In this document: in pieces, positions 11,139-48,800 of the stretch
Numbering within the stretch: the stretch's first letter is position 1
Layout: every line of letters starts with the position of its first letter
Origin: a virus
Lineage: Duplodnaviria > Caudoviricetes
IMG/VR virus record: IMGVR_UViG_3300025011_000016
Reading direction: 5' to 3' (one strand)
Length of the DNA: 64,000 nucleotides
Notes under the pieces: model-generated
What the model was told of the DNA's origin: nothing
What the model saw: only the letters and a program-made list of their open reading frames with translations
Databases searched by the model: none
Position numbers and translations under genes: made by a program

Positions 11139-12628
11139 ATGGCTAAATTATCAGAGGCAAATAAGTTATATTTATTAAGTCTAAACCCAGATGATATTAC
11201 TTTTGATCTTTTATTAGAATTATTTGCCCATACAACTAAAAAAGATAAAGATAATAAAGTATCTGTAGTTAAAGGTAGAATGAATATAACTGATGAATTT
11301 GAATTAAAACCTAATGAATACTTTAATAAAGTTAAAGTAAGAACTACTGCAGGTCAGTTCATATATAACAAATTAATTATTGAAACTGAATTAAGTGAAG
11401 TATTAGGATATATAAGTGACCCTTTAAATAGTAAACGATTAAAAGAATTGGAAGATGTTTTATCTAAAGCTTTATTAACAGATAAAATAACTGTTGAAAC
11501 TATGGTTAACTATCTAAATAAAGTACAATGGCTGGCACTTCAGTTTCATTCAGTTATAAGTGGTTCATTTACTATGAATACTTTAAAACCAAACAAAGTT
11601 GTAACTGCAAGACGAAATAAATTGTTAAAAGATAACGCCGAGAAAATAAAAAATGGTGATGTTATTACAGCAGTTAATATTGAAAAAGAATTATTGAAAG
11701 TTGCACAAGAAGAATTGAAAAATGATCACGGTATGGATCTTTATAAATCTGGTGCCAGAGGATCATTTGGTAATAACTTTAAGAATATATCTGTTATAAA
11801 AGGTCCAGTATTCAATCCATCGAAAGGTGTATTTGATATAGTCACTTCTAACCTAATGGAAGGTATACAGAAGAACGAGCTTACATCAGCAGGTAATAGT
11901 ATTATCAGTGGTGCTTACCCTAAAATATATTGGGGCAATATAGCGTAAGGTATATTGAAAACTATTTAAATTGACGGGAAACTCCTTAGGACTTTATATA
12001 ATAAAGATTGGACAATCCGCAGCCAAGATTCTATAATAGAATAAGGTTCAACGACTAGAGTGAGAACTCGTAAATATTAATAGTATTGAAAATGATGGGA
12101 TCTTCGTATTGGAGATTATGATATAGTCTTGTATCCTAATTAATAATAGGGAAGTTCATAAGAGAACTGTATAGATTAATAATCTATATGAAAATAACGA
12201 AAGCCATAGGAACTGCTGTGTCAGGCTATTTTGCTAAACAAATGGTTGCCTCTTTACAAGCAGTAGTATTAGATTCTATTGGTTCAGATTGTAAATCAAA
12301 AGGAACCTTAAAAGTATTTCTTACTAAAAGTCTAGCGAATGATTTCCTATATAGATATATTGTAGAAGGAAGTAAATTGATTCTATTAGACGATAATAAT
12401 ATATCAAAATATATTGATAAATTTATACAGGTGAGATCTCCTATGTATTGTATATCATCCAAGTTATGCAGGGCCTGTGCGGGACAGATGTACAACAAGC
12501 TTAAGATTGATAATATAGGATTAACAGCCGCTAAAGTTTCAACCACTTTAACCAATTTATCAATGAAAAAATTTCATAATTCATCACAAAGTATAGTTTC
12601 CCTAAAAGTGGATGAATTATGTATCTAA
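11139..12628 (+). CDS. rpoC: RNA polymerase beta'-like subunit (middle/C-terminal part); exons 11139-11921 and 12200-12628, about 403 aa
   Basis: SGARGS motif; spliced EGIQ...GAYP|KAIGTAVSGY aligns without gaps to bacterial EGLN...TALKTANSGY; C-terminal C...C..CAG Zn site. Confidence 0.85.
11922..12199 (+). ncRNA. group I intron (ORF-less, 278 nt)
   Basis: P1 CCCU/GGGG; P AAUUGACGGGAA, Q AAUCCGCAGC, R GUUCAACGACUA, S GAUAUAGUC; ends ...AUAACG. Confidence 0.9.
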
Positions 12629-12830
12629 ACACCATCTTGATTTAAATTATATATTATTAAAGTAATAATAAGAAAGGGGTTGATTAAGATGTAAATATAT
12701 TATTAGCCTATTAAAATAAGAGATGATAAGTTTTAAACTTATCATCTCTTTATATTATTTGTTAAAAATGAGAATTTAATATGTAATGGACAATAACATA
12801 AGGTCTACGAATAAAAGGAGGATAATTTAT

Positions 12831-15800
12831 ATGAGCCAACCCACAGGAGTGAAATTAGTTAAATTAGATTGGAATAAGGAGTGTGAAAAAGATTTTATAA
12901 CTGGTAAAGGTTTTGAAATTACTGAAGTTGCTTTTAAGAAAAAGGATGAGAAAACCTTTAAAGGGAAACCTGATGATTCAAATGGTAAGAAAGAAAAATC
13001 ATATAATGGTATGCACTCAAGTAGATACGCTTCGGATTAATTATTAGTCCCTTCATGTAGTAATACATGTTGTAAACTCTCTTAATTGCGGGGATCTCCT
13101 TAGAGCTTAAACTACTTATATAGTAATAACGTTTAAGATTGTATGATCCGCATCCAAAATTCTATTAAATAGATATGGTTCAACGACTAGAGAAATCTCG
13201 TAAATATAATTGTTATATTGAAATAGAGAGCAACCTAATTAATTAGGTTGATGATATAGTCTTGTATCCTAATTAACATTAGGGAAGTTCATTTGAGAAC
13301 TGTATAGAGTTACAATCTATATGAAAGTATCGTGGGGGGATGAAGATGCATTTGCAGAAAGATATTCCTGTAAATGTAAAGATTTAAAAGGTAGAGTTTA
13401 CGAAGATGAAATATGTAAAATGTGTGGTACTAAAGTAGTTTTTAAAGATGTTGATATGAAAATCACAGGATGGATAAAACTACAACATCATGAAATTATT
13501 CATCCGATATTCTATAAGATGATTAAATCTATTATAGGTGATAAAGTATTTAATGAGATAATTGAATATGATAAGGACATAACTAGAGAAGGAATTGCTT
13601 TAAGTAAAGAGGGTAAGAATCCATTTAAAGGTATTGGTTTGATTGAATTCAGAGAACGTTTCGATGAAATCTTGTTTTATTATAAAGATAAGAAAAAGAA
13701 TAAGATTGACTTAGTTAATGAAGTATTAGCTGAAAGAGAAAAAGTATTTACATTTTGTTTACCAGTTTATTCTTCTGTTTTAAGACCAGTATCATTTAAA
13801 GGTGAAAGTTATTACTATAACTTTATTGATAGAAAGTATAATGCCATATTTTCATTATCACGATTATTAAATACTAAAGGTCCAATGCCTAATGTTAATG
13901 GCATGAAAGTTAAAACAAGTAAGATGGATGAACCAACTATATTACAATCAATGCAAAAGAAAGTTATTGATCTATGGCAATTAATCTTCTCTGAAATTAA
14001 TCAGAAGTCGGGCCACATAAAGGATGGAGTTTGTCCCATCGTAGAGTGATTTACGTTGAAAACTATTTTTAATTGCGGGAATATTCTTAGAACTTCTTTA
14101 TGGAAGATTGGGCAATCCGCATCCAAGTCTCTTTTATATAAGAGAAAGGTTCAACGACTATCCTTTAGTGTTGAAATACACAATAGGAGTAGGGCCTAAG
14201 TAGGTGGGTGAGATTCCCTTAAATCGAAATAAAATGCATCTCGTTGGAGATGATGATATAGTCTGAACTTCTATTGAAAGATAGAGAGAGGTGAAATTCC
14301 TTTGCATTATTTTACAAATAATGTCTACGACTGCAAATTCTCGGTGGTAGGATCAACTTTAGTTCAAGAAATGTAATTATACCGGACCCACAACTAAAAT
14401 CCGATGAAATAAGATTAGGGTATCTTGCTTTTCTAGAGCTATTTAAATATGAAATAATTGCTCATGTCGTTAAGATGAATGATATTTCTGAAAATGAAGC
14501 ATATGAGCAATGGTTTAAAGCAAGTATCAACTATAACAAGAAGATTTATGAAGTGATGATGTACCTAGTTAAGAAAAGAAAACCACGAGTGATCATAAAC
14601 CGAAACCCTAAATAATGTGGGGCGTTATAGAGTGATCTATAAGAGTAAACTATTTTAATTGACGGGAAACTCCTTAGGGCTTCGTAAATGAAGATTGGAC
14701 AATCCGCAGCCAAGTCTCTTATATAAGAGAAAGGTTCAACGACTATCCTTTAGTGTTGAAATACACAATAGGAGTAGGGCCTAAGTAGGTGGGTGAGATT
14801 CCCTTAAATCGAAATGAAAGCATCTTTATAAGATGAAGATATAGTCTTATATCCTAATGAAAGTTAGGGAAGTTCATAAGAGAACTGAGCTACGTTACGT
14901 GTATCTCGAACTCGGGACAATTAATTACGGATCTGAACTCTTAATGAAGATAGTTGATATTAAAAATGAATATAAAGATGATTATACTATGAGTTTACCT
15001 ATTCAAATATTACGAGTACTAAACGCGGATTTGTAACAAAGTCCGGTTATAATAGTAATATTATAACGAGTTCCATGTGAACGCCTAACAAGCGGTGTGA
15101 GAGATATATTATGCTCTTGCTAACGGTAGAAGCGAAATATGCAGAATAAGCTTCGTAAGAGAATCTACGGTCCTGAAATATGGATAGCGTGACAATACCG
15201 TGCCAAGTTCCTATTAATTGTAAGTTCGCAAACAATCTACAAACAGTTAGGATGGTGAAATATCTTGCGTATACTGATTAAACCATATGGGGTAGTTTAT
15301 ATAATGAGAAATTTAATAGATACTAAGGTATATATCGGACAGACTGTAAATCTTGAGAGGCGAAAAAATGAACATAAAAACCGTAAATCCTCATCCAGTA
15401 AGAGATATAATTTTCATATTACTAAAGTTATAGAAGAATATGGATATGAAAATTTTGAATTTAAAGTTTTAGATGAAGCGTTTTCTAAAAAAGACTTAGA
15501 CGATAAAGAGAAATATTTTATATCCTTATTTAAATCCAATGATCCTAAATATGGATATAATTCAAGAGGAGGTAATTTACAAGAACCATTAAATCAGAGA
15601 ACTAAAGATTTAATGTCTAGTTCTCATATAGGCTTGACTGAAACTGCCATAACTAAAAGAAAAAAGTCTCATAAAATTTTAGCATTTAAAGATAATGTAT
15701 GTCTAATTGTGGATAGTGGTAAATTATTTGGTGATATGATTGGAAAAGATAGAAATAATGTAACAAATGCTTTACGAAAGGGAATAAAAATAAAAGGTTA

Positions 15801-16515
15801 CTATGTATTTTATCTAAGTAGTAAAAAACGTGAAGAAGTAATTAAGAAATCTGATGATTGGGCTTATTGCGAACTAAGCCGATTAATAGGAAACGGTGTA
15901 GAGGCCATCGAGCAATCGTATGTTATAGATTATATAACATATGATTGAGTAGAGTACTGGTCGGTTTGCGGGCCGATTGGGAAGCGCATGGCTCCAATAC
16001 TATAGATATATAATATTGGATGAAGATATGGTCCACCCCTATATGAAAATATAGGATGTGGTGTTCGACGGCCAATGTATATGACCGGTGATTCTTTAAT
16101 TGACGGGAATATCCTTAAAGCTTAGACTACTAATGTAATAATGTTTAAGATTGGACAATCCGCAGCCAAGTCTCTTATATAAGAGAAAGGTTCAACGACT
16201 AGAGTGAGAACTCGTAGATACTTTATGTATTGAAATGGGAAACCGATAGATTAAATCTATCGAAGATATAGTCTATTATCCTAATGAGTATTAGGGAAGT
16301 TCATAAGAGAACTGTATAGATTTATAATCTATATGAATATAAAGGATATATTGAATATTATTTCACTGAAGACTAAGAAACTAATTAAAGCTTATGATAA
16401 GACATTTAATCCGAGAAAGAATATGTTCATTTCTAGAAATGATGGATTATTTAATGATGATTTCAATCTACTAAAAGATCAACTTATTGGTCTATATGAG
16501 TTTAACAATATTTAA
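12831..16515 (+). CDS. rpoC: RNA polymerase beta'-like catalytic subunit (N-terminal part); 6 exons 12831-13037, 13333-14025, 14334-14609, 14917-15030, 16064-16072, 16345-16515, about 489 aa
   Basis: Spliced product restores the Zn-binding CKC..C..C, GHIKD|QILGGRINF, NRNP|TIN and NAD|FDG|DILN (NADFDGD); AGGAGG before ATG 12831. Confidence 0.9.
13038..13332 (+). ncRNA. group I intron (ORF-less, 295 nt)
   Basis: P1 GGAU/GUCC; P/Q/R/S elements; 3' G at 13332; joins ASD|WGD in frame. Confidence 0.9.
14026..14333 (+). ncRNA. group I intron (ORF-less, 308 nt)
   Basis: P1 GGAU/GUCC; P/Q/R/S; joins HIKD|QILGGR. Confidence 0.88.
14610..14916 (+). ncRNA. group I intron (ORF-less, 307 nt)
   Basis: P1 CCCU/GGGG; P/Q/R/S; joins NRNP|TINY. 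Confidence 0.9.
15031..16063 (+). mobile_element. group I intron (1033 nt, divergent core) carrying a GIY-YIG homing endonuclease
   Basis: P1 CGGAU/GUCCG; P4 ACGGU/ACCGU; S GAAGAUAUGGUC; ends ...GUGGUG just before TTC GAC GGC. Confidence 0.85.
15265..15948 (+). CDS. intron-encoded GIY-YIG homing endonuclease
   Basis: VVYIMRN....VYIGQT, conserved R and E, GYN motif; lies between the Q and R elements of the intron. Confidence 0.88.
   Translation: MRILIKPYGVVYIMRNLIDTKVYIGQTVNLERRKNEHKNRKSSSSKRYNFHITKVIEEYGYENFEFKVLDEAFSKKDLDDKEKYFISLFKSNDPKYGYNSRGGNLQEPLNQRTKDLMSSSHIGLTETAITKRKKSHKILAFKDNVCLIVDSGKLFGDMIGKDRNNVTNALRKGIKIKGYYVFYLSSKKREEVIKKSDDWAYCELSRLIGNGVEAIEQSYVIDYITYD
16073..16344 (+). ncRNA. 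group I intron (ORF-less, 272 nt) with an apparent C at the 5' splice site
   Basis: P/Q/R/S elements; removal joins FDG|DILN; P1 CGGC/ACCG. Confidence 0.82.
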
Positions 16516-45898: not shown

Positions 45899-48800
45899 AT
45901 GGCTAAATTTACAGATGATCAAATAGAACACATAGAAAGTGACATAGAGAAGATTCAGACTAAGCCTAAATATAATTGGGCTATTATATAGTGATATATA
46001 ATATAAACTTTTTTAATTGACGGAAACTTCCTTAGAGTCTAAACTACTAAATTGATATTTTAGTATATTGATGGCTGAGTGTAATTAACTCAGGTATAGT
46101 AATAATGTTTAGGATTGGATAATCCGCATCCAAGTCTCTTATAATAAGAGAAAGGTTCAACGACTAAATGTAGAGCTCAAGTGAGTGGGTGGAAATCCCT
46201 TAAATCGAAATGGAAAGCATCTTTAATAAAAGATGATGATATAGTCTTATATCCTAATGAAAATTAGGGAAGTTCATAATAGAACTGCACAGCTCAGCAA
46301 ACTGTGTGAAATAATGAATATGTACGTCAGCTATTTAGCACACCTAGGCGCATTACATTTATCTAAAGAGGTAATAAATAATTCTATAGATGAATGTATT
46401 AATCAAAATTCACCAGCTAACGAAATTAATATATATTTAGATGAAGGTGAGAATACTTTACTAGTTGCTGATAATGGTAGAGGAATAGCTTTCGATAAAA
46501 TGGAAATTGTGTGCACTAAATTACAAGCAGGTAGTAAGTTTACCAGAGAGGGTAGTGGTGGAGCTTCTGCTGGAGAAAACGGGTGTGGCATTACGGCCGT
46601 GAATTCGCTGTCGGAACACTTTGAGATAATCTCAACTCGTTATGGTGAAAGGGCTATAATTGAATTTGAATCTGGTAAGTTGGTCAGGTCACCAGTAATT
46701 AAAAAAATCGGTGATAAAACTAAACACGGTACTACAGTAAAATTTAAACCCAATCCATTTTACATGGGTGACGATTGTGATATCCCAACAGATTTATTGA
46801 TTGAATGGATTGAAAAAATAGTTTATTTAATGCCATCAAATATAGAAATATCACTAAGTGTCTCCAGAAAAGGTAAAGAATCTGCAATAAATAAAAAGTA
46901 TCGTAATAAAAATGGTTTAAAGGACTATATTTTGAAATTGTGTAAAAAGCCTATTTTAGATCCAATTCATTTTATGAAATCTTTAAAAATTAAAGAATTT
47001 GATAAAGGTAGAGAGATCGAAAGATTCATTGGATTAGAAACAGCTTTTACTTACAATTCAAATAGTATGGAACCTATTATTGAATCATTTTGTAATTTTG
47101 TGGTCACTGTTGAAGGGGGTATTCACAACGATGCTGTTAAACAAGGTGTTGTCCAATTCTTAGTTAGGAAAACTAAGGAGGGTTTATCTGATAAAGAATC
47201 GAAAAATATTGATATACTACCTATAGACGCTACTCAAGGATTAGTGTTGACATTATACTTAAGTACCGATATGAATATGATGTTTGCATCACAAACGAAA
47301 GAAAAACTTTCTAATAATGCTTTCTTCAAACCACTCAGAAACATGACATTTAATTCATTGGATGAATACTTTAAAAAAGAAGTTAATGATTTAAAGAAGA
47401 TAACAAGTTTTATTAAGACTAATGCTAAAGCAAGAATTGAATCAAACAAAGCTAGAAATGCTGTTATTAAAGGTGAAACTACTTCATTCGAAGAACACAA
47501 AATGAAGAATTTCTCTCCTGCAAATAATTTAGGGAATGATTACAGAGAGTTATTTGTTATAGAAGGTAAATTAGATTGCCTTATTTTCTTTAATTGACGG
47601 GAAACTCCTTAGAACTTCTTAATTGAAGATTGGACAATCCGCAGCCAAGTCTCTTTATATAAGAGAAAGGTTCAACGACTAGAGTATGTAAGCTCGTAGG
47701 TTTATTTATAATCCGAAATGGGAAAACAATAGATTTATTCTATTGAAGAGATAGTCTAATATCCTAATTAACATTAGGGAAGTTCATAAGAGAACTGTAT
47801 AGAGTTATAATCTATATGAATGATTGGATTCAGCAAAGGGTAGTGCAAGGTTAGGTAGGGATACGGATACTCAGGCATTATTTGCAATGCGAGGAGTTCC
47901 ACTTAATAGTTTTAATCTAAAGTTAGATAAAGTTTTATTGAATGATGAATTTAGGGATTTAACTAAAGTATTAAAATGTAATATCGGTGAACGATTTGAT
48001 ATTACAAAACTAAATTATAAAAAAATAATCATACTTACGGATGCGGATTAATTCATAGTCCCATTATGTAGTGATATATAATGTAAACTTCTTTAATTGA
48101 CGGGAAACTCCTTAGAACTTCTTAATTGAAGATTGGACAATCCGCAGCCAAGTCTCTTTATATAAGAGAAAGGTCCAACGACTAATAGTAGGGCTCAAGT
48201 GAGTGGGGTAATAACACCCTTTAAATCGAAAATAGAGGCATCTTTTATAAGATGATGATATAGTCTACACTTTATTGAAAGATAAAGAAAGATAGCATCT
48301 TTACATTATCTAACGAATAATGTTAATATGAATGGATTGATGGTTTGAGAATAGCCTCACTAATTTGTGTATTCTTCTTATGTCATATGCCAGAGATAAT
48401 TAAGCAAGGATATTTATATAAATCAGTATCACCACTATATTTATTAAATGATACTAAGGGTCATTTTATTATTGATAAAAAAGAGTATGTATCAGTTTTT
48501 GAAAAAGCTGTTAGAAATAACATTAAAGTTATTGATCCAGAAACTAATATTGTTTATACTAATAATGAGATGAAAGAGTTACTATTAAAGAATAGGGGAT
48601 ATTTAGAGGAGTTATACCGAGTTAGTAATCATTTTGCAGTTAATCCTTTTATCATTGAATACATCACCATATATGGGGATCAATCAAATTTCATAAATAA
48701 AATGAAAAAGAAATTCCCTGAGTTAACACTTGATGAAGAAAATGTTTTATCTGGTATATATGAAGGAAAATATCAGATTATTATATTGGATAAAATATTC

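Follow-up and report, generated by a model that had tools for sequence, protein, structure and literature searches.

The DNA considered here is a stretch of 64,000 nucleotides (nt), called the window throughout, from the minus strand of a 100,486-bp IMG/VR contig (IMGVR_UViG_3300025011_000016) whose completeness CheckV puts at 42%. Its source is an uncultured jumbo phage of the AR9/phiR1-37 type from groundwater, and the DNA runs that contain the window sequence are groundwater metagenomes. The locus encodes the N-terminal half of the beta' subunit (beta'-N) of a multisubunit RNA polymerase of the non-virion type (nvRNAP), in a gene interrupted by five group I introns (Table 1). The last two, introns 1 and 2, fall within NADFDGD, the Mg-binding loop of the enzyme, and its three catalytic aspartates are spread over three exons, one on each. 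Codons AAC GCG GAT occupy 15022-15030, the nine bases TTCGACGGC (16064-16072) read TTC GAC GGC (F-D-G), and GAT ATA TTG begins at 16345; the two intervening stretches, of 1033 nt and 272 nt, each end in G. An earlier note on this DNA, made from the letters alone, had proposed just this layout, which our reading of the window confirms to the base. A contiguous D[FY]DGD is not found in any frame of the 100-kb contig, and in all assemblies of the phage and its relatives the subunit is annotated as unrelated small open reading frames (ORFs). We conclude, with a probability of roughly 0.8, that two group I introns flank a 9-nt exon inside NADFDGD and that both would be removed to restore the beta'-N subunit.

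Removal of both introns would restore AAC GCG GAT TTC GAC GGC GAT in a spliced RNA predicted to contain GCGGAUUUCGACGGCGAUAUA, with the junctions GCGGAU-UUCGACGGC-GAUAUA, and the six exons of Table 1, when joined, encode a subunit of 508 aa. This product is collinear in a MAFFT alignment with five homologues, including AR9 gp270 and phiR1-37 g274, and shares with them the zinc ribbon, the NRNP motif and the D(F/Y)DGD loop that mark an AR9 gp270-type beta' N-terminal subunit. Across the catalytic motif, LNADFDGDILNIIS aligns without gaps with LGADYDGDVLNFIA, LSGDYDGDVLNIIP and the other homologues. Exon 1 finds phiR1-37 g274 (E = 3e-21), AR9/PBS1 gp270 and Staphylococcus jumbo phages by tblastn, all of them jumbo phages with deoxyuridine DNA (dU-DNA), as well as the beta'-N chain of the solved AR9 non-virion polymerase (Table 1). 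Used alone as a query against IMG/VR, exon 1 found no relative. The same exon-1 protein is encoded on a contig of 272,509 bp, which points to a complete genome of roughly 270 kb. The site is not peculiar to one assembly: L021, L023 and L024, from the same phage, are identical at it, including C16072, as is a Logan DNA contig that bridges it, and the identical sequence persists over samples from 2014 to 2016. None of the SOLiD metatranscriptome contigs from the same samples matched the stretch.

Comparison with relatives shows how the interrupted motif is built. In L017, a 203-kb contig with 61% identity, the motif is uninterrupted (AAT GCA GAT TTT GAT GGA GAT). Seven relatives (L014, L019, L032, L034, L036, L102 and L104) have only the intron at NAD|FDGD, and directly after it they read TTT GAT/GAC GGN GAT ATY YTN AAT, that is, a contiguous FDGDILNII. 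The gene for AR9 gp270 has only an intron at DYDG|D, spliced as GAC GGT|...G|GAC GTA, which is the exact site of intron 2; the spliced AR9 product has 426 aa, as many as chain 7s01_d in the PDB. Both introns together occur only in this phage among the relatives sampled. The arrangement is not a matter of chance, because the nine bases are orthologous to exon sequence in the seven relatives and in the intron-less one. The same comparison bears on the idea that the two introns are a single composite element, a twintron or a pair of mis-delimited introns, and that the nine bases are not an exon. Adjacent introns may indeed be twintrons (PMC10352661). Here, each ribozyme has its own complete set of elements from P1 to P9 and its own omega-G, the nine bases are orthologous to exon sequence in eight relatives, the invariant DFDGD would be lost without them, and, by reasoning from the sequence, a shift of either junction by one base would destroy the omega-G or the motif. 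We find a composite element hardly credible, and treat the nine bases as a micro-exon in what follows.

Intron 1 is, judged by its fold and its covariation, a genuine group I intron, IA-like and with peripheral hairpins after P7. Six homologous introns at this position (site 1) were aligned; homologues are present in L014, L019, L032, L034 and L036, and also in L102 and L104. P1 pairs 15026-15032 with 15039-15045, running from C15026-G15045 to the wobble U15030·G15041 and on through two intron-side pairs. Its core, CGGAU/GUCCG, has the U·G in all six homologues, and L036 shows a compensatory change from GCGGAU/GUCCG to GCUGAU/GUCAG (G-C to U-A), with covariation of the intron-side pairs as well. 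Compensatory changes are numerous in P2 (15046-15067), and variation in P8 and P9 (16038-16055) is compatible with pairing. P7, formed by G15901 plus G15903-U15908 on the 5' strand and A16028-C16034 on the 3' strand, is canonical in 6/6 homologues, with one compensation of C-G to U-A. In P9.0, A16035 and C16036 pair with G16061 and U16062; the helix reads CAC/GUG in most homologues and covaries to CAU/AUG in L014. The omega-G is G16063, and the terminal G is present in all six. The six-copy alignment further reveals a covarying hairpin 5' of P3'. As to alternatives for these helices, GGGCCG (15970-15975) was rejected as the 5' strand of P7, its bases closing a covarying hairpin, and the 'P1' that Rfam assigns in its partial match to intron 1 is in fact a peripheral hairpin. 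An 8-bp pairing of CUAUCGAA with the 3' exon, proposed by RNAalifold, clashes with P7, has zero covariation and was likewise rejected. In consensus form it joins CYAUCGAR (15905-15912, overlapping P7) to UUYGAYGG (16064-16071), at alignment columns 25-32 and 193-200; it has 8 bp in the relatives and 7/8 here. An alternative fold or a chance match may explain it.

The ORF in intron 1 encodes a homing endonuclease of the GIY-YIG family (PF01541, E = 9.8e-13, 48.6 bits against a cut-off of 22.6). Its first ATG is at 15304, with a TTG upstream at 15265, and other assemblies call it as 214 aa. Homologous ORFs are present in L019, L034 and L036, and a remnant of 118 aa in L014. The 5' strand of P7 falls in the last codons of this ORF (GVEAIE; 15895-15912, against 16028-16034 for the partner strand), and there must therefore be competition between translating the endonuclease and folding the ribozyme. 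Separately, the P4-P5 core of intron 1 (15156-15210) has 85% identity to stretches in the Clostridium phages CS266P1, P2 and P4 that carry no annotation but are probably group I introns.

Intron 2 belongs to another family and, from the state of its core, is also a genuine group I intron. Its RF00028 score (Table 1) compares with a gathering score of 50, and the core blocks P, Q, R and S are all intact, with an identity of 75-83% to those of sibling copies; the intron has neither an ORF nor a P2. The earlier note's description of the pair as tandem group I introns stands. The guide sequence of intron 2, UAUAUGACCG (16078-16087), forms a P1 with C16069-G16087, G16070-C16086 and G16071-C16085, after which C16072 stands opposite A16084 and C16073 pairs with G16083. 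P10 has 5 bp (A16346-A16350 with U16082-U16078), and the omega-G, G16344, lies 11 nt past P9.2, the same spacing as in the siblings.

The U·G wobble expected at a group I 5' splice site is absent from intron 2, where the 5' exon ends in C16072. This C at position -1 in place of the near-universal U had been overlooked in the earlier note. In the P2-less siblings with anchors at 47592 and 66724, U(-1) has as its partner a guide G located exactly 14 nt 5' of AAUUG; the base at that distance in intron 2 is A16084, which faces C16072. RNAfold draws the two as a 1x1 loop with Watson-Crick pairs on both sides. To judge from this position, C16072/A16084 looks like a natural C·A wobble splice site, apparently a new one, at which we infer that cleavage is efficient. 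A C·A+ wobble is isosteric with G·U and reportedly can take its place in group I P1 (PMC5769748, citing Doudna et al. 1989). By analogy, it could keep the P1 geometry of intron 2. Other positions fare worse: a 5' splice site after U16064, U16065 or U16076, or one moved by a single base in either direction, loses the omega-G or the motif.

Several points weigh against the double-intron reading. Splicing is deduced solely from sequence and comparison. The Rfam score of intron 1 is below threshold (RF00028, 32.5 bits, E = 4e-6); with its core split by the ORF, only its 3' part was scored. The site-1 homologue in L032, which is without an ORF, has no Rfam match at E<=0.01, and the P3 of intron 1 has no clean assignment. 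For intron 2, the C at -1 is atypical: among the 24 other copies in the contig, at least 20 have a U at -1 paired to G (counted by eye, with one copy unclear and a few outside the check), and so have all six site-1 homologues. A C·A pair requires protonation of the adenine and usually reduces activity. The P1 of intron 2 is weak, at -3.2 kcal/mol against about -6.5 in siblings, and a possible lower extension of it competes with P3. Furthermore, the contig amounts to 42% of the genome, and a second, intact copy of the gene may conceivably exist elsewhere. The exceptional C(-1), the weak P1 and the partial genome would also suit a different history, in which intron 2 arrived recently and splices poorly or not at all, its C(-1) permits little or no cleavage at 16072|16073, and this copy of beta'-N is decaying into a pseudogene or is rescued by another copy. 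We consider this quite unlikely. All the exons and the other four introns are intact, as is the collinearity of the product with its homologues; intron 2 itself has kept every conserved block of the ribozyme core and a 5-bp P10. The A lies exactly at the position of the wobble partner, rather than forming a random mismatch, and the codons of the micro-exon look adapted to the guide. In addition, the sequence stayed the same from 2014 to 2016, and the contig offers no second D[FY]DGD. We therefore retain the reading in which both introns are removed.

If the micro-exon is spliced on both sides, its nine bases serve two ribozymes. The first four (16064-16067) form P10 of intron 1, with 3/4 pairs, and 16069-16072, extendable to 16065, form the exon strand of P1 in intron 2; the earlier note's statement that the splice-site helices of both introns use the same 9 nt is correct in this sense. 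P10 of intron 1 is UUUG/CAAA in the relatives and has UUCG here, and it is weakened because C16066 faces A15038. The codon choice of the micro-exon is, beside the C·A site, a second new feature. All three codons end in C, for which the joint probability under the window's own codon usage is ~0.0017, whereas six relatives without intron 2 have TTT GAT GGN, and L102 and L104 have TTT GAC GGN. GAC is likewise the codon of AR9, with its intron at the site of intron 2. The C-ending synonymous codons fit the guide pairing of intron 2, from which we infer selection or co-conversion at insertion; to intron 1 they cost one pair of P10.

Both ribozymes can be shown to hold elements that are predicted to define the junctions 15030|16064 and 16072|16345. 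For intron 1, the splice sites would be chosen by the P1 CGGAU/GUCCG with its U·G, by P9.0, by omega-G16063 and by a P10 to which the micro-exon gives its first four bases. For intron 2, the choice would fall to a short P1 made almost wholly of the micro-exon (CGG/CCG), to C16072 opposite A16084, to the 5-bp P10 and to omega-G16344. When omega-G16063 occupies the G site of intron 1, it is 1-5 bases from the docked P1 of intron 2, and simultaneous engagement of the nine bases would therefore be impossible; that the two active sites are never both occupied on this exon is a reasonable expectation from the sequence. The earlier note's proposal that splicing is probably ordered goes beyond this and is not supported: the sequence gives no order, and the helices of either intron can form before or after the other is removed. 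One speculative extension, which we regard as unlikely, is that intron 2 cleaves at a C·A+ pair and that the shared 9-nt exon makes the two reactions mutually exclusive and obligatorily ordered, such that the output of the catalytic subunit would depend on pH, Mg or folding and the tandem could serve as a ribozyme-level timer in the switch from virion to non-virion polymerase.

A further possibility is that the micro-exon is frequently skipped, with 15030 joined to 16345, giving a NAD-DILN subunit, still in frame, with a dominant-negative or regulatory role. The arithmetic behind this suggestion is right, since nine bases keep the frame, and its precedent is real: reverse transcription PCR (RT-PCR) has established skipping of the 23-nt exon in Twort orf142 and of the 34-nt exon in Coxiella 23S rRNA (PMC10136302). 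Moreover, the end of exon 3, CGGAU (15026-15030), can pair with the guide of intron 2 (16083-16087), with U15030·G16083 and one A/A mismatch. The second step speaks against skipping. P9.0 of intron 1 requires GU before the omega-G and its P10 requires UUYG; intron 2 offers AA, and the exon after it GAUAUA. The introns are of different families, unlike the near-identical I2 and I3 of Twort, and in engineered tandem introns skipping was suppressed where the splice-site elements were distinct (PMC10136302). None of the relatives hints at such an isoform, and there is no sign of selection for it. Because the P9.0 and P10 of intron 1 do not match the 3' end of intron 2, and the CGGAU/guide pairing is the sole hint in its favour, the isoform proposed in the earlier note is unsupported and purely speculative, and we judge frequent skipping very unlikely.

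The intron distribution of the relatives indicates that the micro-exon arose when an endonuclease intron was already in place and a member of the ORF-less family entered 9 nt downstream of it. Intron 1 would be an old mobile intron, found clade-wide and equipped with a GIY-YIG homing endonuclease; intron 2 would be a later insertion of a small ORF-less family member, at a site held by an unrelated HNH intron in AR9. Sequence and comparison together show that intron 1 came before intron 2. A search for further cases, with a pattern in which T[TA]Y GAY GGN is followed at 16-32 nt by a swarm-type intron, gave L041 as its sole match, which is a chance match in coding sequence. With the looser pattern ATATRGTCCA...TTYGAYGG, applied to two collections, no micro-exon was seen in any of the matches listed; after filtering these were L102, L104, L148, L052 and a duplicate of L019, the rest being mostly chance. 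Two of these matches have introns in related places. In L052 (IMGVR_UViG_3300011005_000065, minus strand, ~7114), the AAT GCA GAT TTC GAC GGG GAC of a related beta'-N gene follows immediately on a swarm-like group I intron, which makes |NADFDGD a third insertion site. In L148 (plus strand, ~2098), an Rpb1-like polymerase gene reads ...TPYNAD | intron | FDGDEMNAHLPQ, with a group I intron at NAD|FDGD; this site has thus been hit in very distant RNA polymerases.

Intron 2 is one member of a swarm. According to Rfam, the window has 14 group I introns, and the family of intron 2 has ~25 copies in the contig. Over the whole 100 kb (G000; 11969-72964 in window-style coordinates) there are 25 AATTG(N)CGGG anchors, ~24 of which are group I cores of this one family. 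All copies share AAUUG(N)CGGGAA, AAUCCGCAGCC, GUUCAACGACUA and GAUAUAGUC, and at least three lack P2 (16098, 47592 and 66724). Intron-rich jumbo phages are known, and Jug phage genomes have a mean of 18.5 introns per genome (PMC12880540). The three upstream introns of beta'-N are of the swarm family. For the second of them, the 5' splice site after U14018 follows from the P1 GGGCCACAU/GUUUGUCCC together with protein collinearity, and the P1 that Rfam places for the intron at 13989 is misplaced; its 3' splice site is at G14323 or alternatively at G14329, both of which keep the frame. Splicing after G14916, at the end of the third, would give NRNP|TINYGS, matching the homologues.

Table 1. Exons, introns and the intron-borne ORF of the beta'-N gene, in window positions.
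Feature	Position	Strand	Basis
Exon 0, beta'-N (nvRNAP-like) gene	12786..13037	+	ORF list; ends TAC GCT TCG GAT; in frame with 13324
Group I intron, swarm family	13038..13323	+	RF00028, 58.1 bits; P1 GGAU|UAA...UUAGUCC in Rfam alignment
Exon 1, zinc ribbon CKC...CKMCG	13324..14018	+	tblastn to phiR1-37 g274 and AR9 gp270; PDB 7S00 chain d, E = 8e-14
Group I intron, swarm family	14019..14323	+	RF00028, 69 bits
Exon 2, ...GGRINFSSRNVI...VIINRNP	14324..14609	+	Pfam RNA_pol_Rpb1_2, 24.3 bits (cut-off 25.3); alignment
Group I intron, swarm family, top-scoring copy	14610..14916	+	RF00028, 100.7 bits; P1 CCCU|AAA...GGGG
Exon 3, ends AAC GCG GAT (N-A-D, first catalytic Asp)	14917..15030	+	Window reading; alignment
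Intron 1, group I, 1033 nt, at NAD|FDGD	15031..16063	+	Partial Rfam match; six homologues aligned
GIY-YIG homing-endonuclease ORF in intron 1	15304..15948	+	PF01541
Micro-exon TTC GAC GGC (F-D-G, second catalytic Asp)	16064..16072	+	Window reading; homologue alignment
Intron 2, ORF-less group I, 272 nt, swarm family, at DFDG|D	16073..16344	+	RF00028, 58.8 bits; sibling alignment
Exon 5, GAT ATA TTG... (D-ILNIISLKT..., third catalytic Asp) to stop	16345..16515	+	Window reading; ORF list; alignment

A second beta'-like gene, which contains GARGS..., GTAVSGYFAKQMV and, resembling a trigger loop, GLTAAKVSTTLTNLSMKKFH, lies directly upstream of beta'-N, at 11139-12628. One swarm intron interrupts it, with a 5' splice site after CCT at 11922 and a 3' exon that starts AAA GCC ATA (KAIGTAVS).

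Among the closest known systems is the intron in AR9/PBS1 gp270 (nvRNAP beta'-N), in the same gene family and at the same site as intron 2. Its P1 consists of GACGG and a wobble pair, and its IA-like core has CUUUAAUUG...GGGAA and GAUAUAGUC. It is a single intron with a canonical U·G and an HNH endonuclease (g271), whereas intron 2 is without ORF or P2, has a C opposite A and lies 9 nt downstream of another intron. Two group I introns around a very short exon are also found in Twort orf142 (I2/I3) and in Coxiella burnetii 23S rRNA (PMC10136302), where the exons of 23 nt and 34 nt compare with 9 nt here; the Twort introns are near-identical IA2 introns, while those described here are of two families and the exon lies within a catalytic motif. 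Exons of less than about four codons between self-splicing introns are regular in mitochondrial genes (PMC10352661). Such mini-exons, as in fungal cox1, involve group I or group II introns, are organellar rather than viral and often depend on maturases or host factors. In PhiPA3, gp210 has, as here, a homing-endonuclease intron by conserved catalytic aspartates of a jumbo-phage RNA polymerase (PMC11620839), there a single intron with HNH in the beta subunit of the virion RNA polymerase (vRNAP), here two introns, with GIY-YIG, in beta'. As for the splice site, PMC5769748 cites as functional an engineered Tetrahymena C(-1)/A in place of U·G, which here would be a natural allele.

In conclusion, short exons between introns were already known, and what is new is how far this goes, with 9 nt left within the NADFDGD codons of a virus, together with an apparent natural C·A splice site. 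To our knowledge, no exon shorter than these 9 nt has been reported between two group I introns of a virus or bacterium, and we know of no mitochondrial mini-exon in the catalytic loop of an RNA polymerase. The C·A wobble at the Tetrahymena 5' splice site that Doudna, Cormack and Szostak described in 1989 is said to have been a laboratory mutant. The present locus offers a natural test case for two ribozyme questions of long standing, that of a C·A wobble that would define a 5' splice site and that of two ribozymes that would act on one nine-base substrate. It is also a warning to gene callers, given the annotation of the subunit as unrelated small ORFs throughout. In these phages, the 21 nt that are most conserved in an essential enzyme have gathered mobile introns at three sites seen in this survey, |NAD, NAD|FDG and FDG|D, two of which are occupied at once here.

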